Source: Clostridioides sp.
GTDB taxonomy: Bacteria > Bacillota > Clostridia > Peptostreptococcales > Peptostreptococcaceae
NCBI GenBank assembly: GCA_031261505.1
Contig: JAISJN010000003.1
Coordinates: 6,141-70,140, forward strand
Direction: 5' to 3'
Length of the DNA: 64,000 nucleotides
A model generated the notes under the pieces. That model made no database searches and was not told the DNA's origin. It saw only the letters and a list, made by a program, of their open reading frames with translations. Below, in pieces: positions 30,522 to 63,380 of the stretch; position 1 is the first letter of the stretch; the number at the start of each line of letters is the position of its first letter. The translations under genes were made by a program, and so were the position numbers.

Positions 30522-30626
30522 ATCTTTTCTCAAGTTAAATCTTGATTGCGTGTTGGGGATTTGCCCCAACTGAAATGAGAATTATGTCCGCCATCTGTAA
30601 TGATGGCGGATATCTTTCTCAAGTTA
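30522..30626 (+). repeat. intergenic repeat, tandem unit E1
   Basis: ATCTTTTCTCAAGTTAAATCTTGATTGCGTGTTGGGGATTTGCCCCAACTGAAATGAGAATTATGTCCGCCATCTGTAATGATGGCGGATATCTTTCTCAAGTTA. Confidence 0.88.
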
Positions 30627-30723
30627 AATGTTGATTCAACGCTTTCTGCTGGGGATTTTCCCAGCTGAAATGAGAATTATGTCTGCCATCTGTAATGATG
30701 GCGGATATCTTTCTCAAGTTATA
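30612..30723 (+). repeat. intergenic repeat, tandem unit E2 (shares the TCTCAAGTTA junction with E1)
   Basis: ATATCTTTCTCAAGTTAAATGTTGATTCAACGCTTTCTGCTGGGGATTTTCCCAGCTGAAATGAGAATTATGTCTGCCATCTGTAATGATGGCGGATATCTTTCTCAAGTTATA. Confidence 0.9.
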
Positions 30724-30762
30724 TTGTACCACAGAATTCGACTAATTTCCTAAATATTGCTG

Positions 30763-31349: not shown

Positions 31350-31437
31350 CTTGAGATAAATGCCATCAACCTCTGAGGGTGGCTGGCATTTATCTCATTT
31401 CAGCTGGGGTAAAATCCACCACCTCTATAGGTGGTAA
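31345..31437 (-). repeat. intergenic repeat, inverted orientation (F)
   Basis: TATAACTTGAGATAAATGCCATCAACCTCTGAGGGTGGCTGGCATTTATCTCATTTCAGCTGGGGTAAAATCCACC plus an extra CCACCTCTATAGGTGG hairpin. Confidence 0.75.
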
Positions 31438-32608: not shown

Positions 32609-32732
32609 TTTTAAATGATTGCTCAACAAGTTAAATGGTGATTCAACGCTTTCAGTGGGAGATTTGACTCCCACTGAAATGAGATTTATGCCCGCCACCT
32701 GTAGAGGTGGGGGACATTTATCTCAAGTTATA
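32609..32732 (+). repeat. intergenic repeat, full copy (G), inside the rSAM operon
   Basis: It has a partial extra left end (TTAAATGATTGCTCAAC) followed by a complete unit that matches 98 of 100 nt of copy A at 2766-2865. Confidence 0.92.
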
Positions 32733-32753
32733 TCACATCAATCTTATATTTCG

Positions 32754-38115: not shown

Positions 38116-38200
38116 TGGTGCGGATGAAGGGAGTCGAACCCCCACGCCGTAGGCGCTAGATCCTAAGTCTAGTGCGTCTGCCAATTCCGCCACATCCGCA
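38116..38200 (-). tRNA. tRNA-Leu (anticodon UAG), CCA encoded
   Basis: Minus strand GCGGATGTGGCGGAATTGGCAGACGCACTAGACTTAGGATCTAGCGCCTACGGCGTGGGGGTTCGACTCCCTTCATCCGCACCA. It has a 7-bp acceptor stem, anticodon loop CTTAGGA, a long variable arm and GTTCGA in the T loop. Confidence 0.93.
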
Positions 38201-39871: not shown

Positions 39872-39952
39872 GAAATACATCCCCACCTCTACCTGTGGCT
39901 TGTATAATTCTAGTTTTATGTCTATCACCTAAAGGTGCAATCATCATTTGAT
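39872..39952 (-). repeat. intergenic repeat, inverted and diverged
   Basis: ACATCCCCACCTCTACCTGTGGCTTGTATAATTCT...CACCTAAAGGTGCAATCATCATTTGATTG. Confidence 0.5.
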
Positions 39953-39962: not shown

Positions 39963-41714
39963 TTAATTCTCTCCGACTGCATTTTTACATTCAACTTCAT
40001 ATGCTAACACATCCGCTTCTTCTATCCTCTTTCCAAGTATCTGTAATCCAATAAATATTGCCAGTATCGCAACTGGTAGCACGATGTATATTGGAACTCC
40101 TAATCCTGCAGGAAGGTATCCAAACACTATAGAGATGACAGCAGTAAAGACCGCATAAGGCATCTGTGTGTTCACGTGGTCGAGATGCTCGCAACTTGCA
40201 CCCATTGATGAAAGTATCGTCGTATCCGAAATAGGTGAACAATGGTCTCCAAATATCGCCCCTGTAAGAACAGCACTAGTACTTGTAACTATGAATCCCA
40301 TGTCAGGGTTCATAGAATGCGCAAGTGGTATCGCAAGAGGCATCAATATACCCATTGTTCCGTATGAAGTACCAGTAGCGAACGATATAATCGATCCCAA
40401 TATAAATATGAGTGTTGGCAACAAGAAGTTTGGCATATTTCCTGAAAGCAATTGAATCAAGAATTTAGCTGTCCCAAGCTCTTTGATGACTGAGCTCAAC
40501 GACCAAGCGAGTATTAGTATAACACCTGTTATAACCAAGGTCTTCATACCATCTACCCATACGTCTATTGCCTCTGTTATCGTAAATATCTTCTTACCTA
40601 CTGCCATTACTATTCCAACTACACTTGCTAGCAATGCAGACTGGAATAATGCTATAGATGCATCGGACGCACTAAATGCCTGTTTTATAGCTTCAAATGA
40701 CAAAGGTGCATTCTTGAATAATTGGATTAATCCTTTGTCGTCTCCAGCCATTATTCCTGAATAACCGCTAGAGTAGAATGATATTAGAGCTGCTACTATC
40801 AAAGTACCTATTGGAATAATTGCATTCCACACACTTAGTTTAACGCCTTCTTTCGGCTCTAAATCGTCCTGAATTTTAACTTCTTCCTGTCTAGGATTTA
40901 CTGTAGTCTGTCTTGCTCTTATCTCTGCCTTTCTCATAGGCCCAAAATCCTTCATGAGAATAGCTGAGAAGAATATAAACGCTAGTATGAGTATATTGTA
41001 GAACCTAAAAGGTATCGTCTGAAGGAATACTCCAAATGCATCTGCCTTTACTCCAATACTTGCAAAAGCGTTGTTTATAAGTCCTACCTCAAGTCCTATC
41101 CAAGTCGATATAATAGCTAGCCCTGCAACTGGTGCTGCTGTCGAGTCTATTATGAAAGATAGTTTCTCTCTAGATATCTTCATCTTATCTGTTACTGGTC
41201 TCATTATAGGTCCTACTATAAGTGAGTTTGCGTAATCGTCAAAGAATACTAAAAGTCCAAGCAACAATGTTATGAGCTGAGTACCTTTTTTAGTCTTCGC
41301 CTTGTCCGCAAGCACCTCTGCTATGGCCTTTGCTCCACCCATCTTCGCAACCAGGTGTATTACTCCTCCTATCGCTAGTACTTGTAATATAATTCCTGCG
41401 TTCCACGGATCTGCTAGCGAGTTTACTGATCTTGTCACTAAATCTAAAAATGAATTAATTAATGCTTGGAATACATTGTTTCCTGTAGTATTAATTATAA
41501 ATCCTCCTGCCAGTATTCCTAGCATCAACGACACTACGACGTTCTTAGTTATGAATGCAAGCGCTATAGCCACTATTGGCGGAATCAACGTCAACACTCC
41601 AAATTTAGCTGCATTAATAGCTGCTGCGTCTGCCTCCTCGGCAAAACCCACGACGGTGAAAAGACTAAGTATCATCATTGTCGTAAGAATAGTATAAATC
41701 CTTCTATTTCTCAT
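39963..41714 (-). CDS. NhaC-family Na+/H+ antiporter-type transporter (probable lysine-related transporter, given its leader)
   Basis: 583-aa polytopic protein with NhaC-type segments (FDDYANSLIVGPIMRP, GAIFGDHCSPISDTT). It sits behind a lysine riboswitch. Confidence 0.88.
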   Translation of the reverse strand: MRNRRIYTILTTMMILSLFTVVGFAEEADAAAINAAKFGVLTLIPPIVAIALAFITKNVVVSLMLGILAGGFIINTTGNNVFQALINSFLDLVTRSVNSLADPWNAGIILQVLAIGGVIHLVAKMGGAKAIAEVLADKAKTKKGTQLITLLLGLLVFFDDYANSLIVGPIMRPVTDKMKISREKLSFIIDSTAAPVAGLAIISTWIGLEVGLINNAFASIGVKADAFGVFLQTIPFRFYNILILAFIFFSAILMKDFGPMRKAEIRARQTTVNPRQEEVKIQDDLEPKEGVKLSVWNAIIPIGTLIVAALISFYSSGYSGIMAGDDKGLIQLFKNAPLSFEAIKQAFSASDASIALFQSALLASVVGIVMAVGKKIFTITEAIDVWVDGMKTLVITGVILILAWSLSSVIKELGTAKFLIQLLSGNMPNFLLPTLIFILGSIISFATGTSYGTMGILMPLAIPLAHSMNPDMGFIVTSTSAVLTGAIFGDHCSPISDTTILSSMGASCEHLDHVNTQMPYAVFTAVISIVFGYLPAGLGVPIYIVLPVAILAIFIGLQILGKRIEEADVLAYEVECKNAVGEN

Positions 41715-41770: not shown

Positions 41771-42035
41771 AAAAAAAAGCCTCAGGCTCACACCCAAGGC
41801 TTTTTTATATCCAATAAACCGGTATACTGAGATTCAGTAGACCAATAAATTAATTTTTTCCTCAAATGATAGCTCATCACAACTACTATGTGACAGTTAT
41901 ACATATATTCTATGTATACCCAGCCTCGAAACCTCAAAGTTTTGATTCCTGACTTCGGCAATATTTCCTTTCACGACGAATCTCTGCACTTAACTCCTCG
42001 TCGCTACTGATAAACACTGCGCCTCTACCTCATAT
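41771..42035 (-). promoter_or_regulatory. lysine (L-box) riboswitch with terminator
   Basis: The minus strand reads GGUAGAGGCGCAGUGUUUAUCAGUAGCGACGAGGAG...GAAAGGAAAUAUUGCCGAAGUCAGG...AACUGUCAC. The terminator AAAAAAGCCUUGGGUGUGAGCCUGAGGCUUUUUUUU follows. Confidence 0.88.
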
Positions 42036-42109: not shown

Positions 42110-43009
42110 TTATCTTTTAAAATATTCCTCTAGGATACTTGATAAAATTTCCTCTGTTCCGTGTATTCCAAAGTTCTCGCTTATACGTGCCTTTTTCTTC
42201 AAGACCTCGTCCATATTTTCTATGTCGCCATGCCTTAAAATATACGAATTTGAGCCTGTTCCAAGCATACCAAAATCCATTATCGAATCGCCTATCGCAT
42301 TATGCTCCGATATACCGATTTTATCCGATACAAATTCTATAGCTTTTTCTTTCGTAAGTTTTTCCGGAGTAAAATACACCTTCCTCCCGTTTACGTAGTA
42401 CTTCCAACCAAGAGTTGGCAAGATTTTTATAAATCCCGACATACGCTGAATATCAAACTCATCTGGGTCTACTACCAAGTAGAAAAACTTATCCTCTGCT
42501 ATTCTAAACTTTTTGATTCCTATATCACATCCATGGTTTCGTTTAGCTATCCCCTTGATTTTACTAGTTTTGAAGTTTCCTTTAGCTACAGAGTTCTTTT
42601 GCGTTTCACCTATGGTGAAGTTCAACTTCTTAAACTCCTCTACTACATTTTCAATCGACTCAGATTCCTTTAGATTTTTTCTGACTATTTCCTTCCACTC
42701 TTGTGATTCCTCTCCGTTTTCTAGCACAATACCTCCGTTTGTCGTTATTGCCCAAGGGAAATTTATTCCGAACCTTGAAAAATCAATCCTCTTAAACTGC
42801 TCGACTGTCCTCGTAGTAGTAGGTACAAAATAACCTAACTTTCCAATTTGCCTTATATAGTCGATTGTAATTTTTGAAATAAAAGAGATCTCTTTGCCCT
42901 CGTACATCTCTATATTTAAATAGTTCTCATCTACAATGCCATCTTTCCCCTCCGCTATAAACCTTTTTGAATAAATTACGCTTCTGTCTAAATCTGAGAA
43001 AACAAGCAC
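42110..43009 (-). CDS. HAD-superfamily phosphatase (Ter-associated biosynthetic module)
   Basis: Motif I FSDLDRS, motif II PTTTRT, motif IV GDSIMD; 299 aa. Confidence 0.72.
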   Translation of the reverse strand: MLVFSDLDRSVIYSKRFIAEGKDGIVDENYLNIEMYEGKEISFISKITIDYIRQIGKLGYFVPTTTRTVEQFKRIDFSRFGINFPWAITTNGGIVLENGEESQEWKEIVRKNLKESESIENVVEEFKKLNFTIGETQKNSVAKGNFKTSKIKGIAKRNHGCDIGIKKFRIAEDKFFYLVVDPDEFDIQRMSGFIKILPTLGWKYYVNGRKVYFTPEKLTKEKAIEFVSDKIGISEHNAIGDSIMDFGMLGTGSNSYILRHGDIENMDEVLKKKARISENFGIHGTEEILSSILEEYFKR

Positions 43010-43013
43010 GTAT

Positions 43014-44120
43014 CTACACTTCCTTTAAATTTTTTATTATGCCACAACATCTATATGCATTTAAATCCTCTTGTACAACCTCTACTCCCTTTTCTTTCGC
43101 CAATACGAATATATGCGCTAATGACTCATCTTCCATATCTCTAACCAGTATTTTATACGGTATTCTCCTCAGAAGTACTCTTGTAGCCTCACCTACCCCA
43201 GGCTTAATGAAATTCACGTCCTCAATATCGTACTTATCCATTATCATCTCGACGTCTAAGCCTCCGACCTTTGTGATTTCATCGGCTGACCAATATTTCA
43301 TTTCAGCATCTATATTATCGTACTGTCCTTTGAAACACGATTCTATCGTGTCCAAATATTTATTTGATTCATCGTGCTCTAGAAGGTGTTTGTAAAACTT
43401 TGCGCCGTGAAAATCTTCTTCTCCGATTAAATCATCTCTGAGAACAGTTCTACTAACCAGTCCAGACACGGTAGAGTTCAGGCAGGCACTTGGAATCAGA
43501 AAATCTTCCCGTATCCCGTACAAACCTGAATATCCAGCTGGATCAGCCAGTACAGCTAGGGTTGAGTCAAATTTTCTGCCGTATTTCTCACCTAGATCCT
43601 CACACGCCCTGTCTAATTCTCTTGATATAGTTCCCTTGCCAGTCCATCCATCTATGAACTGGATTTTCGAGTTTGAGTGATTTTCTAGGATGTATTTGAT
43701 AGCATTTTGGTCTATACCCTTGTCCCTTATAATCGAAATCGTGTAATGTGGTAGCTCTAGATTATACCTTTTCTTAAGGTACCTCTTAGCAAGTATCCCT
43801 ATTGGTATACCCGCTCTGGCAAGAGATGCCAAAACCACATCTCTTCCGTTTTTAGCTATAATTTTTTCACACATAACACCTATAGAAAATGCAAGTTTAT
43901 CCTTGGTTTCTGTGAGTTTATCCCTATACAACTCCAAATACTCATCGCTCACTTGGTATTCTATCGGAATCATTTCTGAATAATGTGTTCCGCCTTGTAT
44001 TTTTCTTTCTCTTTCTTCATTACCCTGTTCCTGTATGTCATCAGAGATGTCCTTTAGCAAGAAGACGACATCGTCTGTACTGTACGATCCAAATTTACTC
44101 AATTTCTCTCCCCCCGTCAC
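43014..44120 (-). CDS. Ter-associated PRTase-fold protein (family often annotated 'cysteine protease StiP')
   Basis: FGSYSTDDVVFLLKDIS...IQGGTHYSEMIPIEY...VVLASLARAGIPIG. This is my recollection of the family signature; no search was run. Confidence 0.7.
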   Translation of the reverse strand: MTGGEKLSKFGSYSTDDVVFLLKDISDDIQEQGNEERERKIQGGTHYSEMIPIEYQVSDEYLELYRDKLTETKDKLAFSIGVMCEKIIAKNGRDVVLASLARAGIPIGILAKRYLKKRYNLELPHYTISIIRDKGIDQNAIKYILENHSNSKIQFIDGWTGKGTISRELDRACEDLGEKYGRKFDSTLAVLADPAGYSGLYGIREDFLIPSACLNSTVSGLVSRTVLRDDLIGEEDFHGAKFYKHLLEHDESNKYLDTIESCFKGQYDNIDAEMKYWSADEITKVGGLDVEMIMDKYDIEDVNFIKPGVGEATRVLLRRIPYKILVRDMEDESLAHIFVLAKEKGVEVVQEDLNAYRCCGIIKNLKEV

Positions 44121-44210
44121 TGTTTTATCTCGTTTCCGACTTGATTTTTAATTATCTTATCTGAACCTGTGATTTAAATATCTATCTGAGTTCATTCTCG
44201 ATTTCAATCC

Positions 44211-45584
44211 CTAGCTACAGTAGACTACAGTTAACTTATCTATATTTGAAGATTTGAACACAGATATTATCTCGTCTAACTCTTCTTTTTTTCCATGTAG
44301 CTCGACAAAAAGATAAGATTCTGTAAACTCATTCAACTCCAAATTGTAGATATAGTTTACTACATCTGAATTGTATAAGCTATTTATCTGTTGCTTAGTC
44401 CTGATTGGATAGCAGATTTCGTCTATAGCAATTATCGGGCTCCTAGTAGTCGAATAATAGTAGATATCCGCTGCCTCCTCGTTTTCCTTTGCAAACATCA
44501 TGGGTATATACATAAATTCTTCTGTCCCTAGAAACAATATCTTTCTAGTTTTTTTGTCAGCTGATATATTTAGTTTACTATTTTCTCTTCTTATTATTTC
44601 TTTTAGTCTTATCTGGTCTTTCCTATCCATTCCAAATCTTCCCGTGTATTTAACGTAGTTTCTATCGCCAATGTACTCGTCAAGGTCTAGATTGACAAAT
44701 TCTAGCTCTAAATCTCTTCCTGCTAAATCTTTTTTAAATGGCAAAATCATTTCTTTCTGAAGTTTGCCTTCTTTTGCATCTGAGTTGACTTCGCCATACT
44801 GAATTTCTTGTTCTGATTCAATCTCCTCTGTCACTGCTAGTTCTGATTCTACCTCATCTGTTATCGCTGATAGTTCACAATCGTCTATTTCAAATTCAAA
44901 TCTTCCCTTGAACAGGTATACAAAGTTTATCTCACAGCCAAACTCTCGCTCAATATATTTAACTCTATCCATACTTTCTTCATCGACCCAGTTTAGTATA
45001 GAGCAGATTGTGTAACTATCCTTGTGAGATATCGACTCTATCTGTTTTATTATGTTCATACAGGTATTTGCCGTTGTTATCTCATCGTCGATAAGAATTA
45101 TATTCTTTACCTCTGAGAACCTTTCTAAGCCTTCACTGTATAGATTTTGCTCTGTGGCGTGCGAATGTTCTTCTAGAAATTCAATTCTATCTATACTGTC
45201 AATCTTTTCTCTAGTAGTGTGGATAAACTCGTAATCACCAACTATATTATCAAAAAAGCTATGGCCAAGAGCGGTGCTCGTCTCTGCAAATGAAATGATC
45301 GTTCCAGAGTTTACGTTATTAAAGTTTCTTGTATTGAAATCACTCTCCTCTGGCTCAACATATTTATCCATAATATTATTATTGTAAACTAACGCTAATT
45401 TCTTACCTAGCTCGTCCATCTCGCTCGGTCTGCAGGCAAGATGTTTTCCAAGCTGCTTTGAAATAAATAAAAACCTTCTTTTTTTATTTTTCCTAACTCC
45501 TATTTCTAAATAATCGTCGATATTTAGATTCAAGGGGTTGTCCGTTATGGTGAAGTCACATCTAAAGTTCAAACAATTCTTCAT
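44211..45584 (-). CDS. Ter-associated phosphoribosyltransferase-domain protein with a C-terminal extension
   Basis: KRRFLFISKQLGKHLACRPS and the PRPP loop NIILIDDEITTANT; 457 aa. Confidence 0.78.
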   Translation of the reverse strand: MKNCLNFRCDFTITDNPLNLNIDDYLEIGVRKNKKRRFLFISKQLGKHLACRPSEMDELGKKLALVYNNNIMDKYVEPEESDFNTRNFNNVNSGTIISFAETSTALGHSFFDNIVGDYEFIHTTREKIDSIDRIEFLEEHSHATEQNLYSEGLERFSEVKNIILIDDEITTANTCMNIIKQIESISHKDSYTICSILNWVDEESMDRVKYIEREFGCEINFVYLFKGRFEFEIDDCELSAITDEVESELAVTEEIESEQEIQYGEVNSDAKEGKLQKEMILPFKKDLAGRDLELEFVNLDLDEYIGDRNYVKYTGRFGMDRKDQIRLKEIIRRENSKLNISADKKTRKILFLGTEEFMYIPMMFAKENEEAADIYYYSTTRSPIIAIDEICYPIRTKQQINSLYNSDVVNYIYNLELNEFTESYLFVELHGKKEELDEIISVFKSSNIDKLTVVYCS

Positions 45585-46659
45585 TGGATACCCCCTCGTT
45601 TAATACCCCGTATATTTTGCCGAGTTTGATCGTTTTTTCCGCCCATCTCATAAGTGGACTCATCTCATTCATCTTTTGACCCGAGGTGCTTTTTGACACT
45701 CCGTAATCTCCACCTTGATTTTTGAGTATCTCCACTGCATCTAAATAATCCTCGTACTTCACAGAGTACATAGCCTGTACAAACTGTACTTGGTTTGGAT
45801 GGATGACCGTCTTGCCCACCAGACCGTGGTATTTATCGAGTTCTATCTCTTTTATGTAGTTCATCCTTAACGCCTCGTCCTTCATATCAAACACCTCGGA
45901 TACGCCTCCACTTACAGGCAGTCCCAGCTCTGGCCTGTTTAGCAATGTCGTTATATCGCCTATGAAACTCGAGCATATATTGTTCTCGTATATTGTGAAC
46001 TTTTCGTTTCTCCTTATCCCAAATGCTCCTAGTATATCAACTAAGCCTACCCTTACTCCGAGTACCCTATCTCTGTACTTTAGAAGAGTGTTGTAGAGTT
46101 CTGAAAACGCTGTGTTTTTTATTTCCCTGTAAATAAACTCCTTGCTCTCTATTATCGGCATCACATACATCTTAGTCAGTCCCCATGAGTCCAGTGTTTT
46201 TATAAATTCTTCTATTTTCTCTGAACTAGCCTTTGGAATCAATATTCCAGATATGACAGCTGAATTCTTACGTATTGCATCCTTCATCAAATTTAACTGC
46301 TCTAGGTCTCTTATCCTCAGAAAGACAACTGGAAATCTCGATTTATTTATTATTTCGTTTTCACTAGTTTCTTGACATCTTGTGCTCAGTCTATTCAATA
46401 TGATTTTTACATTTTCAATAGCCTGTTCTTCCCCAGTCTCGCCTATAGCATCTTCAAGGCAGATAGCAAGTGGTTTGACATCCCTATAACGCCCAGATAA
46501 TGCCTTTATTATCATCTCGAGCTGTGTGGCTGGTATGTACAAAAACGCACCGAGTGCATACCTGAGGATCTCTATATCAGTTGATGAGTCAAGTTCAATC
46601 GGAGCTTTGTAAAACAACCTACTCATATCTTCCTCTCTTAAATAGTTAAAATACTTCAT
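45562..46659 (-). CDS. HpcH/CitE-like TIM-barrel C-C bond lyase (Ter-associated biosynthetic module)
   Basis: LAICLEDAIGE and GKTVIHPNQV are citrate-lyase-beta/HpcH-type motifs. It overlaps the next gene by 23 nt. Confidence 0.75.
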   Translation of the reverse strand: MKYFNYLREEDMSRLFYKAPIELDSSTDIEILRYALGAFLYIPATQLEMIIKALSGRYRDVKPLAICLEDAIGETGEEQAIENVKIILNRLSTRCQETSENEIINKSRFPVVFLRIRDLEQLNLMKDAIRKNSAVISGILIPKASSEKIEEFIKTLDSWGLTKMYVMPIIESKEFIYREIKNTAFSELYNTLLKYRDRVLGVRVGLVDILGAFGIRRNEKFTIYENNICSSFIGDITTLLNRPELGLPVSGGVSEVFDMKDEALRMNYIKEIELDKYHGLVGKTVIHPNQVQFVQAMYSVKYEDYLDAVEILKNQGGDYGVSKSTSGQKMNEMSPLMRWAEKTIKLGKIYGVLNEGVSNEELFEL

Positions 46660-46681
46660 TTTCCACCCCTATGTATTCTAA

Positions 46682-46711
46682 AATGGGCAAGTTACGCAAC
46701 CTGCCCATTTT
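46682..46711 (-). terminator. terminator-like hairpin between telA and the biosynthetic module
   Basis: AATGGGCAGG-TTGCGTAA-CTTGCCCATT on the minus strand, flanked by A and U runs. It lies only about 22 nt upstream of the HpcH-like start codon. Confidence 0.6.
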
Positions 46712-46836
46712 TATATATTCATTTTCATATTTATTAGCTGACACATTTTTAAATGGCTATCGCATATTAAGGATACACCTAGACTAAAATGCATATCTAT
46801 CTTATCCACATAGCAAATTCATAAATATCCATCGAC

Positions 46837-47973
46837 TTATTTATTGTATATTATGCTTGTGTTTAGCTCTTCAAGTCTCTTAGTGTTGACTTTTATCTCG
46901 CTTCTGCCATTTTCTTCAATTCTCATAGTTTCTTCTATCCCAGCCTTTATAGTCTGGTGCATTCTCTCTAGAGTCTCTATCTGTATAGAGCTACTTCCAG
47001 CCATCTTGGCTATCTGTGCACTCTGGCTTGCTACGTTTTGAGCGTTCTTCATTAGAAGTTCGTTTGTCTTATCGTCGAGTGCCTTCAACGACTGAGCCTG
47101 AAGTTCTTGTTTTTTAAGAAGTATAGCCTGTGATAAACATTGTTTAAACACTGGTAGGGTAACTACAAATGCGCTGTTTATCTTTCTGACTAGGTTGTAG
47201 TTGTTGTGTTGCATACCTTTTAACATCGGTATGGTTTGAATAGCTATGTTTTCAGCTATTCTAAGATCGTAGACCCTTTGGTTTAGCATATCGTATATCT
47301 TTAGTAGATCCTGATAGTTGACTAGATCCATCTGGTCTCCCGATGTCTCAGATAGATTTTTGTAATATGGAAGTATATCGTTATCCATCTCTTCAACAGC
47401 CATCTCTCCCGCTACTATATACTTCTGTAGCTCGTTGTAGAAATCGAAGTTCTCGTTTAACATTGCTCCTAGTTGTTTATTTGAAGTACCTATCTCTCTT
47501 TCGTAGTTTTCAAGTTCTATCTGGATCTTTTCCACTTCTCCACCGAGTGTCTCGTATTTTTGGAACATCATATCCAGTGCAGAACTAGCCTTTTTAAATA
47601 TCTTCTGTATTAGATTAGGCTCTTTTGTATCTTTGAAATCGTCTATATCAAACTTGTCCATTATTTTAGCTAGAGAGCCTAGCATTTTTGAGTTTTCTTC
47701 GTTTTTATTCAATCTTATGCTGTTTAGCAAATTGTCGGATACCTTTGCAACCCCTTCTGAGGCACTTCTTCCAAATTTTAAGATTGTATCAGGGTTTTCC
47801 ACTTCTATTAGAGAAGTCAAGGCTTCTACTTCTCTCGATTGTCTGAGTTCGTTTTTCTTGTTGTTTGTGTATTCAACTATATCAAAATTATCTTCTACTT
47901 CTGGTTTTCCTTGCTCTATTATGCTTTGCGATTCGTTTGCTCTGCCCATGTTTCCATTCATTTTTATTCCCAT
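46837..47973 (-). CDS. telA: TelA / YceH-type toxic-anion-resistance protein
   Basis: 378-aa all-helical protein with family-typical layout. It sits in the conserved position next to the YceG-like and TerD genes. RBS AAGGGGAGGA. Confidence 0.8.
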   Translation of the reverse strand: MGIKMNGNMGRANESQSIIEQGKPEVEDNFDIVEYTNNKKNELRQSREVEALTSLIEVENPDTILKFGRSASEGVAKVSDNLLNSIRLNKNEENSKMLGSLAKIMDKFDIDDFKDTKEPNLIQKIFKKASSALDMMFQKYETLGGEVEKIQIELENYEREIGTSNKQLGAMLNENFDFYNELQKYIVAGEMAVEEMDNDILPYYKNLSETSGDQMDLVNYQDLLKIYDMLNQRVYDLRIAENIAIQTIPMLKGMQHNNYNLVRKINSAFVVTLPVFKQCLSQAILLKKQELQAQSLKALDDKTNELLMKNAQNVASQSAQIAKMAGSSSIQIETLERMHQTIKAGIEETMRIEENGRSEIKVNTKRLEELNTSIIYNK

Positions 47974-47987
47974 GATTTATCCTCCCC

Positions 47988-48081
47988 TTAGATATTGATT
48001 GTGTGGTGTGGAATTTTTTCCACTCAAATGAGATTTATGCCCGCCACCTATAGAGGTGGGTGACATTTGTCTCAAGTTATA
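47988..48081 (+). repeat. intergenic repeat (I) between the YceG-like gene and telA
   Basis: TTAGATATTGATTGTGTGGTGTGGAATTTTTTCCACTCAAATGAGATTTATGCCCGCCACCTATAGAGGTGGGTGACATTTGTCTCAAGTTATA. Confidence 0.82.
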
Positions 48082-48086
48082 ATATT

Positions 48087-49682
48087 CTATCTCATTTTTC
48101 CAAATAATTTCTTAAACAGAGGTACTTCCTTGTCCAAATTATTCATATGTAGGTCGTACTCCATCTTTTCCAACCTGTGAATATCTATTAGCTTGCCGGA
48201 TATCATATTTTCTATATTGTTTTCTCCACCAGGGGTAAGCACAACTACATCAAACCCAACCTTGCTTAGGAGCAGTATAAGAAAACAAGTTTCCTTTGGA
48301 AATATATAGTCCTTTCCTACAAACACGACTAGCTTAGGTGTTACCCCCGAATAGTCGAAGTTATTTAACATCCTTACAAACTGCCTATCCATATTTAACA
48401 CTGCATGCAGTCCTTTTATACGCTCTTCACTGTCGAGTCCTGTGGTGAATAGGTTACCCTCAAACAGCTCTTCTACCTTGTCTAATATCATAATCTGAGT
48501 ATTTATGCTCAGGCTGGAAGTCTGGTACTCCGGATTATTTAAAATATCCTTTTTCTCTATTTTTCCAGCTGCCGATATTAAAAACGACATACCGAAATCC
48601 GCTCTGGTAAACTCCTTTGAAAAGACTCCTGGTCTTCCAAAGTATTCTATGAAGTATGCGTACTCCGAATTCTTCAACTTATTTATAAATTCGATATATT
48701 TGCTTGAATCCCTGTATATTCCGTCTATTTTTGTCAAAAATACTGGCATTTGAACTAACTTATTGTCAAATCCGAACCCTGGTCTGAGTTTTGCCGGCTC
48801 GCTCCAGTATATACTTATCTCGTCAACTGTAGTACTCAAGAGTAGATTTTTTATTATCCTATCTTGAAGCTGCCAAGGTTTTATAAACCCAGATTCCTCC
48901 ATGAGTTCCCTTCCTATACGCTCTGACGCCTGTGCTCCTACCGTATAGGCTTTTTTGACAGATCCCTTTTCTACCTTTCTACCAAGTTCTTTTCTATCTT
49001 CAAAAGTCATATTCTCCGTTGAAAATCTCTCCTCAATTACTTCAAGGTTGTTCTGCCTTTTCACATCTAATACCCCTATATCCGTTTTTTTGTTAGGACT
49101 TAGGTATATCACGTCAAATCCAGCTAAAAACATCACATCAAAAAACAGAAGCTCGTGTTTTTTAGCTTCGCCGTAGAATATTATCTTGGGGCTGTCGATC
49201 TTATCTATAGTCAAACTTCCTATGTATTCCTTAATCCAGGACATTATCTTTATTATAAAATTTTCTTTCATCCTGTCGTTTGCAAATTCTTTTGAGTTTT
49301 CCTTCAAAACGATATCCATGGACTGTTTGATTTTGAAATTGATGCTCTCGTTTTTAACAAGTTGGATATCTATGCTTTCAATGCTATTTCTATAGCTTTT
49401 TAGCTTGTCTTTGAAATAATTTATCGTGTCAAAATCGTTTGGATTCGATATATTTCCAGTAAACACTGCTATATCCTTCCTATTATCGATTTTATAGCTC
49501 ATCTTAAATATCTCAAGATTATATAAACTTTCCTCATTTAAACCAAAATACAAAATAAAATAGCTTAAAAAACCCTTCGAAGGAGTGAAATTTCCTCTAT
49601 CTGCCTGGCTAGAGAACAATCTTTCAAATACCGCTGCATCGCTCACTCTACTTCCCTCATTTCCTTCAAAATTTTGCCCCAA
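48087..49682 (-). CDS. YceG-like protein (uncharacterised Ter-cluster component)
   Basis: 531 aa; size and position match Bacillus yceG between the TerD genes and yceH/telA. The start is uncertain: the track start is TTG 49682, and GTG 49646 follows GAGGGAAG. Confidence 0.65.
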   Translation of the reverse strand: MGQNFEGNEGSRVSDAAVFERLFSSQADRGNFTPSKGFLSYFILYFGLNEESLYNLEIFKMSYKIDNRKDIAVFTGNISNPNDFDTINYFKDKLKSYRNSIESIDIQLVKNESINFKIKQSMDIVLKENSKEFANDRMKENFIIKIMSWIKEYIGSLTIDKIDSPKIIFYGEAKKHELLFFDVMFLAGFDVIYLSPNKKTDIGVLDVKRQNNLEVIEERFSTENMTFEDRKELGRKVEKGSVKKAYTVGAQASERIGRELMEESGFIKPWQLQDRIIKNLLLSTTVDEISIYWSEPAKLRPGFGFDNKLVQMPVFLTKIDGIYRDSSKYIEFINKLKNSEYAYFIEYFGRPGVFSKEFTRADFGMSFLISAAGKIEKKDILNNPEYQTSSLSINTQIMILDKVEELFEGNLFTTGLDSEERIKGLHAVLNMDRQFVRMLNNFDYSGVTPKLVVFVGKDYIFPKETCFLILLLSKVGFDVVVLTPGGENNIENMISGKLIDIHRLEKMEYDLHMNNLDKEVPLFKKLFGKMR

Positions 49683-49783
49683 AGATTACAACCTATTTCT
49701 GTTATCTTTGAGGCAAGAACTTATATATTTTATTATATAACTATTTTATTTTTATGTCTTGTATTATTTTAATTTTCTTAATC

Positions 49784-52531
49784 CTATGCTTCTTCTTTGT
49801 TTGATAATATTCTTATTATAAACTTAACCAACTCGTTCACTACTATTACAGATATCGCTGTACCAAGTACTTTTAACCACGTATTTACATCTAGAGCAAC
49901 TGAGTTGAAGAAACTTTTAAATACCTGTGTGAACAGTACCTGCGCTAGACCAGTTGCAAGTATTATCTCTACCGCAAGCCTGTTCTTAGTGAAGTTTGGC
50001 AATATACTATCAGATCCAAACTCTCTACAGTTGAATGCATTAAACAACGCACTGAATGCGAATAAGGCAAATAAAACTGTTCCCTTTGATGCATCCGATA
50101 CTTCAAGGAAGTTGAAAGATGATTGTAATAGGATTAGAGCCGTGATATACAGGGCATTTAATACTATTGTGTACGCCATTTTTCTATTAATGATATTTGC
50201 TTCCCTATCTACTGGTTTTCTGTTGAGTACGTGTTCTCTAACTGGTTCCAGACCAAGTGCTAATGCTGGAGGTCCATCCATGATTATATTTACCCATAGT
50301 AGCTGAATAGTAGTAAATGGCATATCCTGACCTAGTATCTGAGATGCTATTGCAACCAAGAATGCTATGATATTTACTGTGAACTGGAATTGGAGGAATC
50401 TCTGGAAGTTGTCATAGATACCTCTACCCCATTTGATACCTTGAACTATAGTGCTGAAACTATCATCTGTAAGTATGATATCTGCTGCGCTCTTAGTTAC
50501 CTCTGTACCACTTATCCCCATTGCAATACCTACATCTGCCTTGGATAATGCAGGGGCGTCGTTTATACCGTCACCAGTAACCGCAACGACCTCTCCGTCT
50601 TTTTGTAGGGCTCTTACTATTCTCATCTTTGTCTCTGGCTTATTTCTAGCTACGACTCCGATACTTCTTATCTCTTCTTCCAACTCGTTGTCTGAAAGTG
50701 TATCGATGTAAGTTGCCTCTACAGCCCTCATTCCTTCTGGAAGTAGACCTAGTTCTTCTCCTATCGCCTTAGCTGTGATTATATTGTCACCTGTAAGCAT
50801 CTTGACCGCTACACCAGCGTGTCTAGCTTTCTCTACAGCGTCTAACACGTCCACTCTAAGTGGGTCTCTGATTCCTACGAATCCACTGAATACTAGGTTG
50901 TTCTCTAATAGACCGATGTTTACGAAATCGTCCTCTGTGCTTATCGCTGCTTCTTCGTCTGCTATTGTTACATCCCTATAGGCAAATCCCAAGGTTCTCA
51001 TAGATTTTACCTGTAGTTTTTTTATTTCTTTTAATACCGCTTCTTTTACATTTATAGTCATAGGAACGATTTCGTCACCTTTTTGTACATATGAGCATAG
51101 ATCTAGTATTACCTCTGGTGCTCCCTTTGTAAGTAGGATGTACTTGCCGTTGTCTTCGTACATAGATGACATCCTCTTAGTTTCTGACGAGAATGGACTC
51201 TGTGCGACTACTTCCGACTGAGCTCTTACGCTTCTGTAGTTCTTGTCGGCGTTTAATAAAAGCAAGGCGCATTCTGTAGCACTTCCGAGATACTTGATTC
51301 CATCAGCTGATTTCTCTATATCTGCAGTCGAGTTAAGTATACAGTTTTCAATGAAGTAACTGTTTGAGCTATTTATATTTACACCCTTGTCTTCACCGTC
51401 TACATGTACAAATTCTACAGTCATCCTGTTTTGTGTGAGTGTACCTGTCTTATCTGAACAGATGACAGACACTGAACCGATTGTCTCACAAGCTTCTTTC
51501 TTGGTAACAAGTGCATTGATATTTGCCATCTTCTGCATAGTGATAGCGAGTGTCATGTTTACCATTGTAGGCAACCCTTCTGGCACTGCTGCGACTATCA
51601 AGGCAACACAGACTGTAAATGCTGTCTTTGCTGGTCCTATAGATTCCATAAACGGCATAAATCCTGATACATCTAGGTTTAATACACCCTTTCTCACCAT
51701 CTGAATTATCATGAATATAAACAGCAATCCAGCTATAGCACTTGAAATTTGAGATACAAACGCTCCTAGATTTCCAAGTTTAGTCTGTAGTGGAGTCTGC
51801 TCTTCAGATCCTGTAAGATTACCTGCTATCTGACCCATTTCACTGGCGTCACCGATAGATGTTACAACCAGTTGACCTCTACCATAGGCTACAAGGGTAC
51901 CACCAAATACCATGTTTATCTGTTTCGCAGGTATTGGATCCTGTATCATTATTTCTCCTCTGGCGTCGATTCTCTCTTCGTCTATTAACACATCGCTCTT
52001 TTTAGAAACGTCATCCGATTCCCCTGTGAGCATATCTTCTCTTATTTTTAGGTTTACACTTTCTATAAGTCTACCATCGGCTGGAACCATATCGCCAGTT
52101 TCTATATGTACTATATCTCCTGGTACTAGTTCGCTTTTTGATACTTGACGCACCTTGCCGTCTCTGAGTGCCCTTACCTCTATGTTTTCAGTCATCTTTG
52201 ACAATGCGTCGGCTGCCTTCTTGGATTTTCCCTCGGTAATCATTCCTATTGCTATACCGATGATTATTGCTGCTATAATACCTATAGCGTCGTGTACCTC
52301 TCCTATAAGTGCACTCACCAAAGCTGCAATTATAAGTATCACAATCATAGGCTCTAAAAGTGCATCTTTTAACTTATCGAAGAAGCTCTCCTCTTCCTTT
52401 GGTGTGAACTCGTTGAGGCCGTACTTTTCTCTTCTCGTCTTGATTTCGCCATCGTCTAACCCGCACTCCGGATCGACCGATAACTCATCCAGGACTTCAT
52501 TCACTTTACTATTATAATACTTCATTATCAA
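49784..52531 (-). CDS. P-type ATPase, Ca2+-transporting (P2) type
   Basis: CSDKTGTLT, PEGLP (TM4), TGDN, GDGINDAPAL, NIIMDGPPA (TM6); 915 aa. Confidence 0.92.
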   Translation of the reverse strand: MIMKYYNSKVNEVLDELSVDPECGLDDGEIKTRREKYGLNEFTPKEEESFFDKLKDALLEPMIVILIIAALVSALIGEVHDAIGIIAAIIIGIAIGMITEGKSKKAADALSKMTENIEVRALRDGKVRQVSKSELVPGDIVHIETGDMVPADGRLIESVNLKIREDMLTGESDDVSKKSDVLIDEERIDARGEIMIQDPIPAKQINMVFGGTLVAYGRGQLVVTSIGDASEMGQIAGNLTGSEEQTPLQTKLGNLGAFVSQISSAIAGLLFIFMIIQMVRKGVLNLDVSGFMPFMESIGPAKTAFTVCVALIVAAVPEGLPTMVNMTLAITMQKMANINALVTKKEACETIGSVSVICSDKTGTLTQNRMTVEFVHVDGEDKGVNINSSNSYFIENCILNSTADIEKSADGIKYLGSATECALLLLNADKNYRSVRAQSEVVAQSPFSSETKRMSSMYEDNGKYILLTKGAPEVILDLCSYVQKGDEIVPMTINVKEAVLKEIKKLQVKSMRTLGFAYRDVTIADEEAAISTEDDFVNIGLLENNLVFSGFVGIRDPLRVDVLDAVEKARHAGVAVKMLTGDNIITAKAIGEELGLLPEGMRAVEATYIDTLSDNELEEEIRSIGVVARNKPETKMRIVRALQKDGEVVAVTGDGINDAPALSKADVGIAMGISGTEVTKSAADIILTDDSFSTIVQGIKWGRGIYDNFQRFLQFQFTVNIIAFLVAIASQILGQDMPFTTIQLLWVNIIMDGPPALALGLEPVREHVLNRKPVDREANIINRKMAYTIVLNALYITALILLQSSFNFLEVSDASKGTVLFALFAFSALFNAFNCREFGSDSILPNFTKNRLAVEIILATGLAQVLFTQVFKSFFNSVALDVNTWLKVLGTAISVIVVNELVKFIIRILSNKEEA

Positions 52532-52561
52532 TATCCTTCTCTTTTTTTAGTCTTATTTAAA

Positions 52562-53179
52562 TTAGAAACTTATAGAGCTCAAATTTCTGAGTACTTCTGT
52601 CAAGCTTGCAAATTTATATCCTTCACCTATCGCTTCAAACTCCCAGCTTCCATTTTTTCTAAAGATACAGCCTACTACTAGAGTTGTCTTGTCAGCATAA
52701 TTATCAGATAGATTGTACTTGACTATCTCTTTTCCGCTCTTTTGATCCACAACTCTTATAAATGCATTCTTTATCATTCCGAAATCTTGGTTTCTCTTTA
52801 TGCAGTCGTATATATTTACTATGAATAGAAGTTTTTCTATTCTGCCAGGTACGCTGTCAAGGTCTACGAGTATCTGTTCATCGTCGCCAGCGCCATCTCC
52901 TGTAAGGTTGTCACCAGTATGAATTACCGAATTATCTCTGCTCTTTAGGTTAGCAAAGTATATAAAATCTTTTACATTACCTAAGGCTCCATTTGAATCT
53001 AACATGAACACCGATGCATCACAGTCTATATCCGGTGCACCCATCCCAACTAATTTTTTGAAAAATCCTCCGCTAGATGCTGAAACTGGATCCCAGCCTA
53101 GTCCAACCAATATTTTACTTAGACCTGGATTTGACTTCCTAAGGTCTATCTTCTCACCTTTAGCTAAATTAATAGACAT
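52562..53179 (-). CDS. terD: TerD-family stress protein (longer paralogue)
   Basis: LAKGEKIDL...GLGWD...GDNLTGDGAGDDEQI. Confidence 0.9.
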   Translation of the reverse strand: MSINLAKGEKIDLRKSNPGLSKILVGLGWDPVSASSGGFFKKLVGMGAPDIDCDASVFMLDSNGALGNVKDFIYFANLKSRDNSVIHTGDNLTGDGAGDDEQILVDLDSVPGRIEKLLFIVNIYDCIKRNQDFGMIKNAFIRVVDQKSGKEIVKYNLSDNYADKTTLVVGCIFRKNGSWEFEAIGEGYKFASLTEVLRNLSSISF

Positions 53180-53196
53180 ACTTTCCCTCCTGACTC

Positions 53197-53775
53197 CTAT
53201 ACGCTAAGTCCATAGTTTCTGCAAAGTGATTCTAGGCCACCTTCGAAACCTGCACCCACTGCGCTAAATTTCCATTCTCCATTGTATTTATATATCTCAC
53301 AAACGGTTATTGCTGTCTCTACGCTGAATTCTTCGCCTAGGTCATATCTTAATATCTCTTCATCATCTGCTGTATTCAACACTCTGACATAAGAATTTGA
53401 AACCTGTCCAAAGTTCTGTCTTCTCTCCTCAGCCTCATAAATTGTAACTGTTACCGCTATTCTCTCTATATGGTTAGGCATTGCTGGAAAGTCTACTATT
53501 ATTTCCTCGTCATCTCCATCGCCTTCTCCTGTCCTGTTGTCTCCAAGATGTTCTACTGCACCTGAGGTGTGTTTCAGATTATTGTAGAATATAAAGTCTT
53601 CATCATGCTCAACCCTCTTTGAATTTCCAACCATGAAAACACTTACGTCTAGGTCGAAATCGTTACCGCTATCAAAAGAGTTCGTATCCCATCCAAGTCC
53701 TAATTTTATCTTCTTCAGTCCTGGATTACCTTTAGTTAAATCAATTTTTTGACCTTTTTTTAAAACTATCGCCAT
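53197..53775 (-). CDS. terD: TerD-family stress protein
   Basis: LKKGQKIDL...GLGWD...[15 protein letters not shown]. Confidence 0.93.
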
Positions 53776-53831
53776 TAGTTCTCCCCCTATCCTTTTTCTG
53801 TATCGCCTTTGTATATGATACTATTTTTATT

Positions 53832-54410
53832 CTATAGATTTATGCCAAAATTGCCGCAAAGGGCCTCTAGTCCACCTTCAAATCCCGATCCTAGGGCGTT
53901 AAATTTCCATTCGCTGCCGTGTCTGTATATATCTGCGACTACTACAGCTGTCTCAATGCTGAAATCTTCGCCTAGTTCGTATTTTATGAGTTCTTCATTT
54001 GTATCGTTGTTTACTATTCTTATAAATGAATTTTCTACCTGACCGAAGTTCTGTCTTCTTGAAACTGCATCGTGTATAGTCACAGTAAATGAAATCTTGT
54101 CTATTGTAGATGGTATCTTTGACAAGTCTATTAAAAGTTGTTCATCGTCTCCCTCACCTTCACCAGTCCTGTTGTCACCTAGATGTTCTATTGCACCTGA
54201 GGTGTGTTTTAGATTATTGTAGAATATGAAATCTCCATCGTTTGTAACCTTTCCATTTGATCCAGTTAAAAATGCCGCTGAATCCAAATCGAAGTCTGAG
54301 CCTCCATCGTATTTATTTGTGTCCCAACCAAGACCTACTAGTATATTTTTTAGACCTGGGTTAGATTTAGTCAAGTCTACCTTTTGTCCTTTTGCCAAAG
54401 TTATTGCCAT
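53832..54410 (-). CDS. terD: TerD-family stress protein
   Basis: LAKGQKVDL...GLGWD...[15 protein letters not shown]. Confidence 0.93.
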
Positions 54411-54578
54411 ATTAACCCCTCCTCAATTTAGAGACCTAAGTCTCCTAAGATATCAATAAAAAAGTGAAATTTTGTATTCTCTTACACTTTTTCTTAATTG
54501 TGAAATATTTATACTCATTATATCATTTTTTTATTGCAAAGTACTGTTTTTAATCTTTTTCTAATCTTATTTTTAGAA

Positions 54579-55403
54579 TCACCTTACATGGTTTTTCTCA
54601 ATTACATTTTCAATCACCATATAAAACATTACCGAAACCAAGATGAAACAAATTCCAATTATATTGTATCCACCTCCGAAAATCAATGAAATGTCTGGCA
54701 CAGTGTCAGGCATCATCTGCATGGCGATTACGGATATAGAATTGTTTATAAAATGAAGCATCATCGCTGGGTATATCGATCCCGCCCTATATGCTGAGTA
54801 CGCAAATAAGACGCCTAGAATTGCTGTCGGTATCACCCTTATTAAATTATAGTGCAAAGATCCAAATAGAATTGAGCTTCCTAAAATAGCTAGAGCTACG
54901 GCTGTTTTTTTCGAAGTCTTAGTAGTCTGCACATTCTTAAACGCAGAGAATATAAATCCTCTAAATAGAAGTTCTTCGCATATAGCTGGAGTTCCTGCAG
55001 TTATAAGTATGTTAAATAACAGACCTCCGTCAAAGTTCAACGCCTTATTTAGCGAGTCTACCACCTCAGTACTGTTTGGTACTACATTTATCAGTATGGC
55101 CGTAACCATGAGTATAATCACATAGCCGGATATATATATGCCAAGCGCTAAGAATACGTATTTTAACTTTGGAACCCTTAGTTGAAATACCTCTTTTAAA
55201 TCTGCCTTGATGTATAGCGAATATATAATTGGTATCGACGCTAATACAAGCTCGGTGGCGACTATCCCTCCAGTCGGATGAGTGTACTGCAGGTACGCAC
55301 CAATGGTAAATAGAAATACCAATGCCAATAAGTACGCAATCAAACCGTCTCCCGGCCTAGGCATACTTTTATTTTCTATATTTGATCTCCTCGTGAACAG
55401 CAT
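54579..55403 (-). CDS. CPBP-family (CAAX-type) intramembrane metalloprotease
   Basis: EELLFRG (motif 1), FGSLH (motif 2), HFINN (motif 3). I trimmed the start to ATG 55403 to avoid overlap with the GIY-YIG gene. The track ORF begins at 55496. Confidence 0.85.
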   Translation of the reverse strand: MLFTRRSNIENKSMPRPGDGLIAYLLALVFLFTIGAYLQYTHPTGGIVATELVLASIPIIYSLYIKADLKEVFQLRVPKLKYVFLALGIYISGYVIILMVTAILINVVPNSTEVVDSLNKALNFDGGLLFNILITAGTPAICEELLFRGFIFSAFKNVQTTKTSKKTAVALAILGSSILFGSLHYNLIRVIPTAILGVLFAYSAYRAGSIYPAMMLHFINNSISVIAMQMMPDTVPDISLIFGGGYNIIGICFILVSVMFYMVIENVIEKNHVR

Positions 55404-55422
55404 GAATTTCTTATCCAAATTA

Positions 55423-55746
55423 TCACTCCTCTCCAACTGCAAATTTTTCTGTAAATTCACAGACTTCGTACTCCGCAAAGTCCTCGAAATAATCACTGAG
55501 CTTGTCTGGATTTTTAATTAATATAAGTTTTTTATTTCTGCTGAGCTTCTTTATCCCGTATTCGAGTTTCATAGCCTTGCTTTTGGAATCGCTGCCAAAC
55601 AATGCCTCTAAGTCTGAAAATCCCCTAGCCCTGGTATATTTAGAGTTAATTCCATTCCTATGTTCCCCTAATCTTCTTTTAATATCCGTTGTGTATCCAG
55701 TGTATAGACTTCCGTCCTTACAGCTTATTATGTACGTGTAAAACAA
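55423..55746 (-). CDS. small GIY-YIG nuclease-family protein
   Basis: FYTYIISCKDGSLYTGYTTDIKRRLGEHRNG. TTG start after GGGGG. Confidence 0.88.
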   Translation of the reverse strand: MFYTYIISCKDGSLYTGYTTDIKRRLGEHRNGINSKYTRARGFSDLEALFGSDSKSKAMKLEYGIKKLSRNKKLILIKNPDKLSDYFEDFAEYEVCEFTEKFAVGEE

Positions 55747-62984: not shown

Positions 62985-63273
62985 ACTATCCCTCCCATTC
63001 ATAACTCTGTTACAGATTTACGCTGCAAGCACTCTTAGACGGGTTGCCCCTGTCGCCAAATCTAATGTATTTTTTGCTCACAACCACACCGATTAAGAAT
63101 TAATTCTATCTTAACCGCCCATTCTTATATTAAACTATAAATCGAGGATTTTTGCAACGTTATATAAAAAAATAGGAGCATTCGACATTATTCTATCCTA
63201 CTTATTCTAATGGTTCTATCTTATTTATTATATTTCCTTAAGATTTATTACGTTTCCTTAAGTTTAAACTAAG

Positions 63274-63380
63274 TTATATAACTTGAGAAAAATACCCCCA
63301 ACCTCCTATAAAGTCAGCGGTCGAAATTCTCATTCCTAGGATAGTAAAATCTCCAACAAGATAATCAAGGCTTAAAATTT
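63274..63380 (-). repeat. intergenic repeat, inverted and decayed (K)
   Basis: TTATATAACTTGAGAAAAATACCCCCAACCTCCTATAAAGTCAGCGGTCGAAATTCTCATTCCTAGGATAGTAAAATCTCC... Confidence 0.55.

Follow-up and report, generated by a model that had tools for sequence, protein, structure and literature searches.

The 64-kb stretch of DNA analyzed here, from Clostridioides sp. contig JAISJN010000003.1 and called the window below, carries a cluster of ten co-oriented genes at positions 42110-54410 that is built around proteins of the Ter and Yce families. A check of the open reading frames (ORFs) placed all ten on the minus strand, at the coordinates given in the preliminary description of this DNA. Nine of the ten encoded proteins far exceed the Pfam gathering cut-offs of the families expected from that description, and the tenth is recognized as an HAD-IIB hydrolase by profile and motifs. 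From the upstream end, the genes encode three TerD paralogs, a P-type ATPase, a YceG-family protein, TelA, a C-C lyase, a PRTase_2-TRSP protein, a StiP-PELOTA protein and the HAD hydrolase. The only sequencing run containing the window is a termite-gut DNA metagenome, and the nearest StiP homologs, 70-75% identical, are from the Peptostreptococcaceae (Terrisporobacter, Intestinibacter, Clostridium sp.). It is near certain that the cluster represents the Ter/Yce stress-response operon in its Peptostreptococcaceae form, carried here by an uncultured termite-gut relative. Coordinates of the cluster features that follow are all on the minus strand.

Three TerD paralogs had been counted before, and all three match the Pfam TerD family. 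TerD1 (192 amino acids; 53832-54410; 278 bits) has Ca2+-binding-type motifs, including DFDLD, and matches Klebsiella TerD (Protein Data Bank [PDB] 2KXT), a Ca2+-binding protein, at 7.7e-73 with the acidic motifs kept. TerD2 (192 amino acids; 53197-53775; 274 bits) is 61% identical to TerD1. TerD3 (205 amino acids; 52562-53179; 232 bits) is divergent, with an insertion, the motifs DIDCD and GDNLTGDGAGDDE, and only 41-44% identity to TerD1 and TerD2. The first, second and third TerD proteins of Clostridioides difficile are 85%, 88% and 70% identical to TerD1, TerD2 and TerD3, respectively. Reading of the sequence upstream of TerD1 revealed a candidate extended -10 promoter element, TGaTATAAT, at 54517-54525, and an AAAAATG[a/t]TATAAT element also precedes the first TerD gene in C. 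difficile (locus L082) and in an uncultured Peptostreptococcaceae metagenome-assembled genome (MAG; locus L004). This element is likely to be the main promoter, where the cluster transcript would start.

Downstream of the TerD genes, the P-type ATPase of the preliminary description (49784-52531) was corroborated by the Pfam domains E1-E2_ATPase, Cation_ATPase_N and Cation_ATPase_C and a cation-ATPase domain, and by the NCBIfam equivalog for PMCA-type Ca2+ ATPases, TIGR01517, which it passes with 626 bits against a cut-off of 507. The motifs DKTGT, TGES, PEGLP and NIIMD (M6) were read, and the top solved relative is the Listeria Ca2+-ATPase LMCA1 (6ZHF; 480 bits, full length). The protein is by sequence a P2-type, LMCA1/PMCA-like member of the Ca2+-pump family, and Ca2+ transport is predicted. 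It has P2-ATPase motifs in common with Listeria monocytogenes LMCA1 (lmo0841), which is not known to be part of a TerD cluster. As for the components said to be missing, neither TerC nor ATP-grasp gave a tblastn match anywhere in the 64-kb window, and TerB and vWA were not found in the cluster or in the approximately 6-kb flanks on each side, the part of the window that was searched for them. The earlier statement that TerC, ATP-grasp, TerB and TerY/vWA are absent is therefore upheld for the first two over the whole window and for the others over the cluster and its flanks.

The next two genes encode a YceG-like protein and TelA, as had been proposed (Pfam YceG_bac, 251 bits; TelA, 340 bits). 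The YceG-family protein (531 amino acids; 48087-49682) is 58% identical to C. difficile YceG in an alignment beginning at residue 13. The annotated start is a TTG codon with a weak ribosome-binding site, relatives align only from residue 13, and translation may really begin about 12 codons further on. Comparison of its AlphaFold model (predicted local distance difference test [pLDDT] 81, predicted template-modeling score [pTM] 0.49) with the PDB by Foldseek gave no confident fold match, the marginal ones being tandem RecA-like ATPases at a template-modeling (TM) score of 0.17. Each half of YceG has one alpha/beta unit with a similar P-K-x-x-x-Y ... G-F-D-V/I ... P-x-G pattern, near residues 165-196 and 449-486; an internal duplication in the origin of YceG is suggested. 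The 101-nucleotide spacer between the ATPase and YceG genes contains a promoter-like site, AAGACA-17-TATAAT (10 of 12 positions; 49732-49760), which is a possible internal promoter for YceG-TelA. TelA (YceH-like, 378 amino acids; 46837-47973) is 79% identical to C. difficile TelA, and single-sequence PDB searches with TelA and YceG gave no significant match.

Two structured elements interrupt the spacing of the genes, and both were real at nearly the positions first assigned to them (47988-48081 and 46682-46711). Between YceG and TelA is one copy of a dispersed structured repeat of about 100 nucleotides (47980-48085) that forms two hairpins (-29.9 kcal/mol, z = -4.1). The YceG-TelA gap is 113 nucleotides in the window compared with 5 in L004 and 0 in C. 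difficile, where the repeat is not at that position, and for this reason we regard the repeat as a lineage-specific insertion. Its sense strand is without a U-tract, and so transcription is probably not terminated there. Between TelA and the lyase gene, a terminator-like hairpin (46680-46711; 14-bp stem, -19 kcal/mol, z = -3.4) ends approximately 20 nucleotides before the lyase start codon, a distance that accommodates a ribosome-binding site and not a downstream promoter; the enzyme genes would therefore depend on transcription from upstream. Neither element had a credible family in Rfam, whether the whole window was searched at the gathering score or the two spacers at E <= 1.

The hairpin has positional equivalents, differing in sequence, just ahead of the lyase gene in L004, in C. 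difficile (there between TelA and the lyase) and in a locus with rearranged gene order (L003). Of 45 Firmicutes loci, 30 have a terminator-like hairpin in the 130 nucleotides that precede the lyase, compared with 9 of 225 shuffled controls (4%), and its end stands 22-77 nucleotides ahead of the lyase start in those 30. It is best explained as conserved punctuation, a putative partial terminator or attenuator that would lower enzyme expression relative to TerD/TelA. The cluster had been described as split by the repeat and the hairpin. That holds for the repeat, as a lineage-specific insertion, but the hairpin is conserved and is not a disruption. An attenuator-like hairpin conserved ahead of the enzyme genes matters for expression studies.

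The last four genes form the biosynthetic module. The HpcH/CitE-like lyase recognized earlier is a TIM-barrel C-C lyase (365 amino acids; 45562-46659; Pfam C-C_Bond_Lyase, 317 bits), the family profile of which shows weak similarity (E about 1e-6) to CLYBL, citrate lyase beta and malyl-CoA lyase and which has 44 invariant columns, including E69, D70, R115, E171, D208 and R216-R217. Its gene is overlapped by 23 nucleotides by that of a PRTase_2 phosphoribosyltransferase (PRTase) with a C-terminal TRSP domain (457 amino acids; 44211-45584; 206 and 122 bits), corresponding to the PRTase with a C-terminal extension of the preliminary description. The DDEITT loop for phosphoribosyl pyrophosphate (PRPP), which had also been pointed out, comprises residues 166-171 (D166-D167-E168-I-T170-T171) and is at least 95% conserved in 49 homologs. 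A long acidic stretch separates the two Pfam domains of this protein. The HAD gene (299 amino acids; 42110-43009) has no Pfam match above threshold (S6PP at E = 0.016), and its match to the Cof-type HAD-IIB NCBIfam (3.9e-9) is under the cut-off. A profile of 31 orthologs aligns along almost its entire length with a solved HAD-IIB trehalose phosphatase, 6D3V (E = 3e-19), and also matches sucrose phosphatase. The four HAD motifs D6xD8, T65-T66-R67, K210/K220 and G240-D241-S242-x-x-D245 show either full invariance or conservation of at least 95%. Profile and motifs identify the protein as an HAD-IIB, sugar-phosphate-phosphatase-type hydrolase, and the earlier assignment as an HAD phosphatase can be kept. 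At 299 and 457 amino acids, the HAD and PRTase_2-TRSP proteins of the window exceed the lengths seen in the closest relatives (257-266 and 394-430 amino acids). Single-protein PDB sequence searches with StiP, PRTase_2-TRSP, the lyase and HAD gave no significant match and no close solved structure, and a literature search, outside which most subscription journals lay, found no paper naming the module product, in agreement with the preliminary description.

The third protein of the module (368 amino acids; 43014-44120) consists of a StiP domain (Pfam PF11202, formerly PRTase_1; 350 bits) with a PRTase fold and a C-terminal PELOTA_1 domain (110 bits) that had previously gone unmentioned. A Foldseek search of the PDB with its AlphaFold model (pLDDT 94.6, pTM 0.93) placed PyrR, HGPRT and OPRT at the top with a probability of approximately 1.0 and a TM score to target of about 0.5, and no protease was among the 50 matches listed. 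StiP has a TG-x-G-T phosphate-binding-type loop, as do PyrR and the type I PRTases. Across 34 diverse homologs, the PRPP-loop-like segment F155-x-D157-G158-W159-T-G-K162-G163 is invariant, and no cysteine is invariant or nearly invariant. Unlike PyrR and the type I PRTases, to which it is 14-20% identical, StiP has a single acidic loop residue, extra N-terminal elements and the PELOTA_1 domain. The model and the alignment support the identification of StiP as a PRTase-fold protein and not a cysteine protease, and thereby the earlier view that it is a second PRTase-fold protein with a misleading name.

StiP alone accounts for about 1,000 clusters at 50% identity, and many of the nearest representatives are fusions of approximately 800 residues with the domain order PRTase_2-TRSP-StiP-PELOTA. 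In Actinobacteria and many metagenomic lineages (proteins P0121, P0122, P0128 and P0181; loci L048 and L052-L081, about 8500-11140), PRTase_2-TRSP and StiP-PELOTA make up one protein of approximately 800-900 residues, with a Ter-type ATP-grasp fused ahead of it in P0128. Because PRTase_2-TRSP and StiP-PELOTA are fused in so many relatives, it is almost certain that they function together in a single complex. Future work should address the two PRTase-fold proteins as such a complex and should not handle "StiP" as a protease.

With a diverse StiP alignment as the seed, a scan that took one genome for each species yielded 80 loci from Peptostreptococcaceae, other Clostridia, Bacillaceae, Paenibacillaceae, Desulfosporosinus, Streptomyces and Nocardia, which were searched by tblastn with the ten window proteins; co-conservation was counted on the 65 loci of at least 19 kb. 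In every one of the 65, the lyase, PRTase_2-TRSP, StiP-PELOTA and HAD genes keep their order on one strand, and at least two TerD genes, most commonly three, are found within 10 kb. YceG is present in 25 of these loci, TelA in 24 and the ATPase in 4. The co-conservation of the enzymes with TerD that the preliminary description presupposed is therefore complete in this set, and that with TelA extends to the 24 loci. TerC was detected in 38 of the 80 loci, mostly Bacilli, and not in the other 42; ATP-grasp was detected in 18, mostly Paenibacillus, and not in 62, making it an optional component of Ter-type systems. With such numbers, the lack of TerC or ATP-grasp is common.

The characterization of this version as minimal and unusual did not survive the comparison, since the same ten genes occur in identical order in C. 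difficile and in the MAG L004; the architecture of the window is the standard form of the family. The C. difficile locus (L082/L083), which includes the TerD1 gene CDIF630erm_01811 and also 01816 (PMC6262375), encodes three TerD proteins, ATPase, YceG, TelA, lyase, PRTase_2/TRSP, StiP/PELOTA and HAD, at 44% to 88% identity to the window proteins. It differs in having a TelA-lyase spacer of 63 nucleotides instead of 177, in shorter HAD (263 amino acids) and PRTase_2-TRSP (412 amino acids) proteins, and in its upstream neighbor, which is a divergent gene for a YceG_bac-trypsin fusion (L082 3490-4926, minus strand) where the window has a CAAX protease gene. The assembly collection has the C. difficile YceG sequence indexed in 4377 of its blocks.

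The ATPase distinguishes the clostridial form. No locus contains both TerC and the ATPase (TerC in 38, ATPase in 4), and in those Bacilli loci that were examined TerC immediately precedes the lyase. The Clostridium locus L025 retains an orthologous ATPase with 63-73% identity, and in both L025 and L003 the ATPase is still with the cluster although the gene order is rearranged. From these positions, in five ATPase-bearing loci, we infer that TerC and the Ca2+ ATPase are alternative membrane partners.

Among known systems, the Bacillus "cluster 2" ter/yce genes (e.g., B. altitudinis 3W19) comprise three terD genes, terC, lyase, PRTase, StiP, HAD, yceG and yceH. They have in common with the window the three TerD proteins, the order of the four-gene module, the YceG-TelA pair and often a hairpin before the lyase. 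In the Bacilli, TerC is directly upstream of the lyase and YceG-TelA is downstream of HAD, whereas the window has the Ca2+ P-type ATPase and no TerC, and YceG-TelA is upstream of the module. The enterobacterial terZABCDEF operon confers tellurite, phage and colicin resistance, and its TerD, TerE, TerZ and TerA are TerD-domain proteins. The window shares TerD-family proteins with it, TerD1 being close to Klebsiella TerD 2KXT, and differs in that TerB, TerC and vWA were not found in the cluster and its flanks, with TerC absent from the full 64 kb. In the cluster and its flanks the classical combination of TerB and TerC alongside TerD does not occur, the ten genes all belonging to families other than TerB and TerC.

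Ter-dependent stress-response systems with a biosynthetic module were reportedly described by Anantharaman, Iyer and Aravind in 2012, and the attribution of the window cluster (TerD/TelA/YceG plus module) to systems of that kind is supported. As set out in two later papers, such systems have TerD, a PRTase and HAD core, a second PRTase with a TIM-barrel lyase, the membrane-associated TelA and/or TerC, and, in a five-enzyme version, ATP-grasp (PMC7824862, PMC11994780). The window has TerD, the PRTase and HAD core, the second PRTase and lyase, TelA and a module co-conserved with TerD; the ATP-grasp of the five-enzyme version had no tblastn match in the 64 kb. The system is already known and widespread, and the copy in the window brings no new component.

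We consider it somewhat more probable than otherwise that the cluster is a Ter/Yce operon combining Ca2+ handling with the production of a ribosylated effector, and the mechanism by which it would do so is moderately likely at best. One transcript would start at the extended -10 promoter upstream of TerD1, and partial read-through of the hairpin after TelA would keep the enzymes at a lower level than TerD/TelA. The three TerD proteins would bind Ca2+ and, in the cytoplasm, sense or buffer the divalent cations that flow in after envelope or oxidative damage. The LMCA1-like pump would export Ca2+, in the role taken by the cation exporter TerC in Bacilli, and YceG and TelA would act at the membrane. 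The PRTase_2-TRSP/StiP-PELOTA complex would join PRPP to an acceptor made or modified by the CitE-like lyase, and the HAD-IIB phosphatase would then remove the phosphate, leaving a small ribosylated, nucleoside-like molecule as the effector that adjusts the response. Related clusters do respond to stress: C. difficile synthesizes more TerD1 and TerD4 after metronidazole, and 01816, annotated as tellurite-associated and five locus tags after TerD1, rises with fidaxomicin (PMC6262375). B. altitudinis over-expresses ter cluster proteins under tellurite (PMC11994780), and huge gut phages carry several TerD genes together with a highly expressed Ca2+ P-type ATPase (PMC12880540).

Several considerations weigh against this mechanism. 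The product, ligand and trigger are postulates for every member, and the transcript is predicted from sequence, the only sequencing run with the window being a DNA metagenome. The Ca2+ link depends on homology and gene position, and the replacement of TerC by the ATPase is likewise positional, with five ATPase-bearing loci. The actinobacterial loci, mostly Streptomyces, have neither TerC nor ATPase detected within 10 kb, and Ter systems may therefore be able to do without a cation exporter in the membrane. The role given to YceG is a guess, since the protein has no recognizable fold relative. Finally, transcription may also begin inside the cluster, from a promoter overlapping the hairpin or at the promoter-like site ahead of YceG (49760-49732).

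The presence of such a promoter-like site, and of a strong hairpin parting the enzyme genes from the rest, raises the question of whether the cluster is one system. Three independent neighbors could have been kept together by a shared ancestry of gene order: TerD with the Ca2+ pump, YceG-TelA at the envelope, and an enzyme operon behind its own terminator. YceG-TelA is missing in 40 of the 65 module-bearing loci and the ATPase in 61, and B. subtilis-type clusters exist without the module (PMC11994780). Yet the module was never without TerD in the 65 loci, which span two phyla, and the approximately 20 nucleotides between the hairpin and the lyase start make the enzyme genes reliant on upstream transcription. 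The gaps between TerD3, ATPase, YceG and TelA are moreover tiny or overlapping in relatives, and the ATPase remains with the cluster in the rearranged loci L003 and L025; we therefore regard independent units as unlikely. An anti-phage system resembling abortive infection, in which the PRTase module would make a nucleotide-derived alarm and TerD, TelA and the ATPase would execute a membrane response, is unlikely as well. It is suggested by the association of Ter systems with phage resistance, where PRTase and HAD proteins have been proposed as signal makers (PMC7824862), by the occurrence of multiple TerD genes and a Ca2+ P-type ATPase in huge gut phages (PMC12880540), and by a weak PADLOC match of PRTase_2-TRSP to the retron-associated PRTase_III-A (2e-6). 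That generic hit was, however, the only one in a scan of PADLOC-DB v2, which gave no system match for the ten proteins and no hit for the other nine. The surroundings are housekeeping genes of uniform guanine-plus-cytosine (GC) content without mobile-element genes, and the cluster is syntenic, apparently belongs to the C. difficile core genome and is shared by several families, which sets it apart from variable defense islands.

The other alternatives concern StiP-PELOTA itself. PyrR, the best structural match of the StiP model, is a PRTase-fold, mRNA-binding attenuation regulator, and StiP-PELOTA could be a nucleotide-sensing, RNA-binding regulator of the same type that may control read-through of the hairpin in its own operon, or the module could act on RNA. 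The RNA-binding-type PELOTA_1 domain, the one acidic residue in the PRPP-type loop DGWTGKG and the conserved terminator-like hairpin directly upstream of the module would all fit such a role. Nevertheless, HGPRT and OPRT match almost equally well and the TM scores are modest, the hairpin sequences differ by lineage without an evident common protein-binding motif, and the fusion of StiP to the catalytic PRTase_2 in Actinobacteria is a better fit to an enzyme complex; we judge a PyrR-like regulator improbable. Still less credence attaches to a composite, Ca2+-gated small-molecule signaling circuit, in which TerD would sense cytoplasmic Ca2+ raised by envelope damage, the LMCA1-like pump would reset it, regulated read-through of the hairpin would control expression of the module, and StiP-PELOTA may sense the ribosylated product and exert this control; this is very improbable. 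If it were true, with the pump as a stand-in for TerC, divalent-cation export would be the conserved membrane role in Ter systems. A cysteine protease, as the protein is named after Acinetobacter baylyi StiP, with the four genes then not forming a nucleoside-type pathway, is so improbable that we reject it. The name persists in Pfam and NCBI, and a 2025 paper still regards the protein as a protease and as "not involved in nucleotide biosynthesis" (PMC11994780), but the 34 diverse homologs provide no cysteine for the purpose, the high-confidence model matches PRTase-fold proteins, with no protease among the 50 matches listed, and StiP is fused to PRTase_2 in many lineages.

The Ter/Yce module, found here in Bacillota and Actinomycetota, is among the more widespread bacterial gene sets of unsolved chemistry. 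An identical system exists in the genetically tractable C. difficile, and the question of product and trigger is better attacked there or in Bacillus. For the Ter/Yce operon with Ca2+ handling and a ribosylated effector, the apparent alternation of TerC and the Ca2+ pump as partners points experiments toward divalent-cation handling.

The genes within approximately 6 kb on either side of the cluster are unrelated to it. Upstream are a CAAX (Rce1-like) protease gene on the same strand as the cluster (54579-55496, minus) and genes for a hexapeptide transferase and a pyridoxal phosphate (PLP) enzyme. Immediately downstream of the HAD gene is a lysine riboswitch (41862-42035, minus; 109 bits), and directly behind it is the gene of a Na+/H+-antiporter-family transporter (39963-41714, minus). 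No obvious terminator was seen in between, and L004 also has a Na+/H+ antiporter gene downstream of its cluster. GC content is even over the whole window. A mobile-element or defense-island setting was considered and rejected because GC is uniform and the flanks are housekeeping; mobile-element genes were not found.

The repeat inserted between YceG and TelA belongs to a family with approximately ten copies in the window, about one per 7 kb, all intergenic and at one locus arranged as a tandem pair. The other minus-sense copies are at 2764-2870, 10154-10260, 30527-30633, 30633-30728 and 32631-32737, one plus-sense copy is at 31334-31425, and weaker copies are at 19899-19936, 39881-39916 and 63265-63305. 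Compensatory changes were found in 7 of 22 pairs, and the family looks like a REP/MITE-like (repetitive extragenic palindromic/miniature inverted-repeat transposable element) or structured-RNA element of the host genome. Elsewhere in the window, Rfam at the gathering score identified two T-box leaders and one tRNA gene, at 4338-4547, 12772-13029 and 38119-38199, all on the minus strand.

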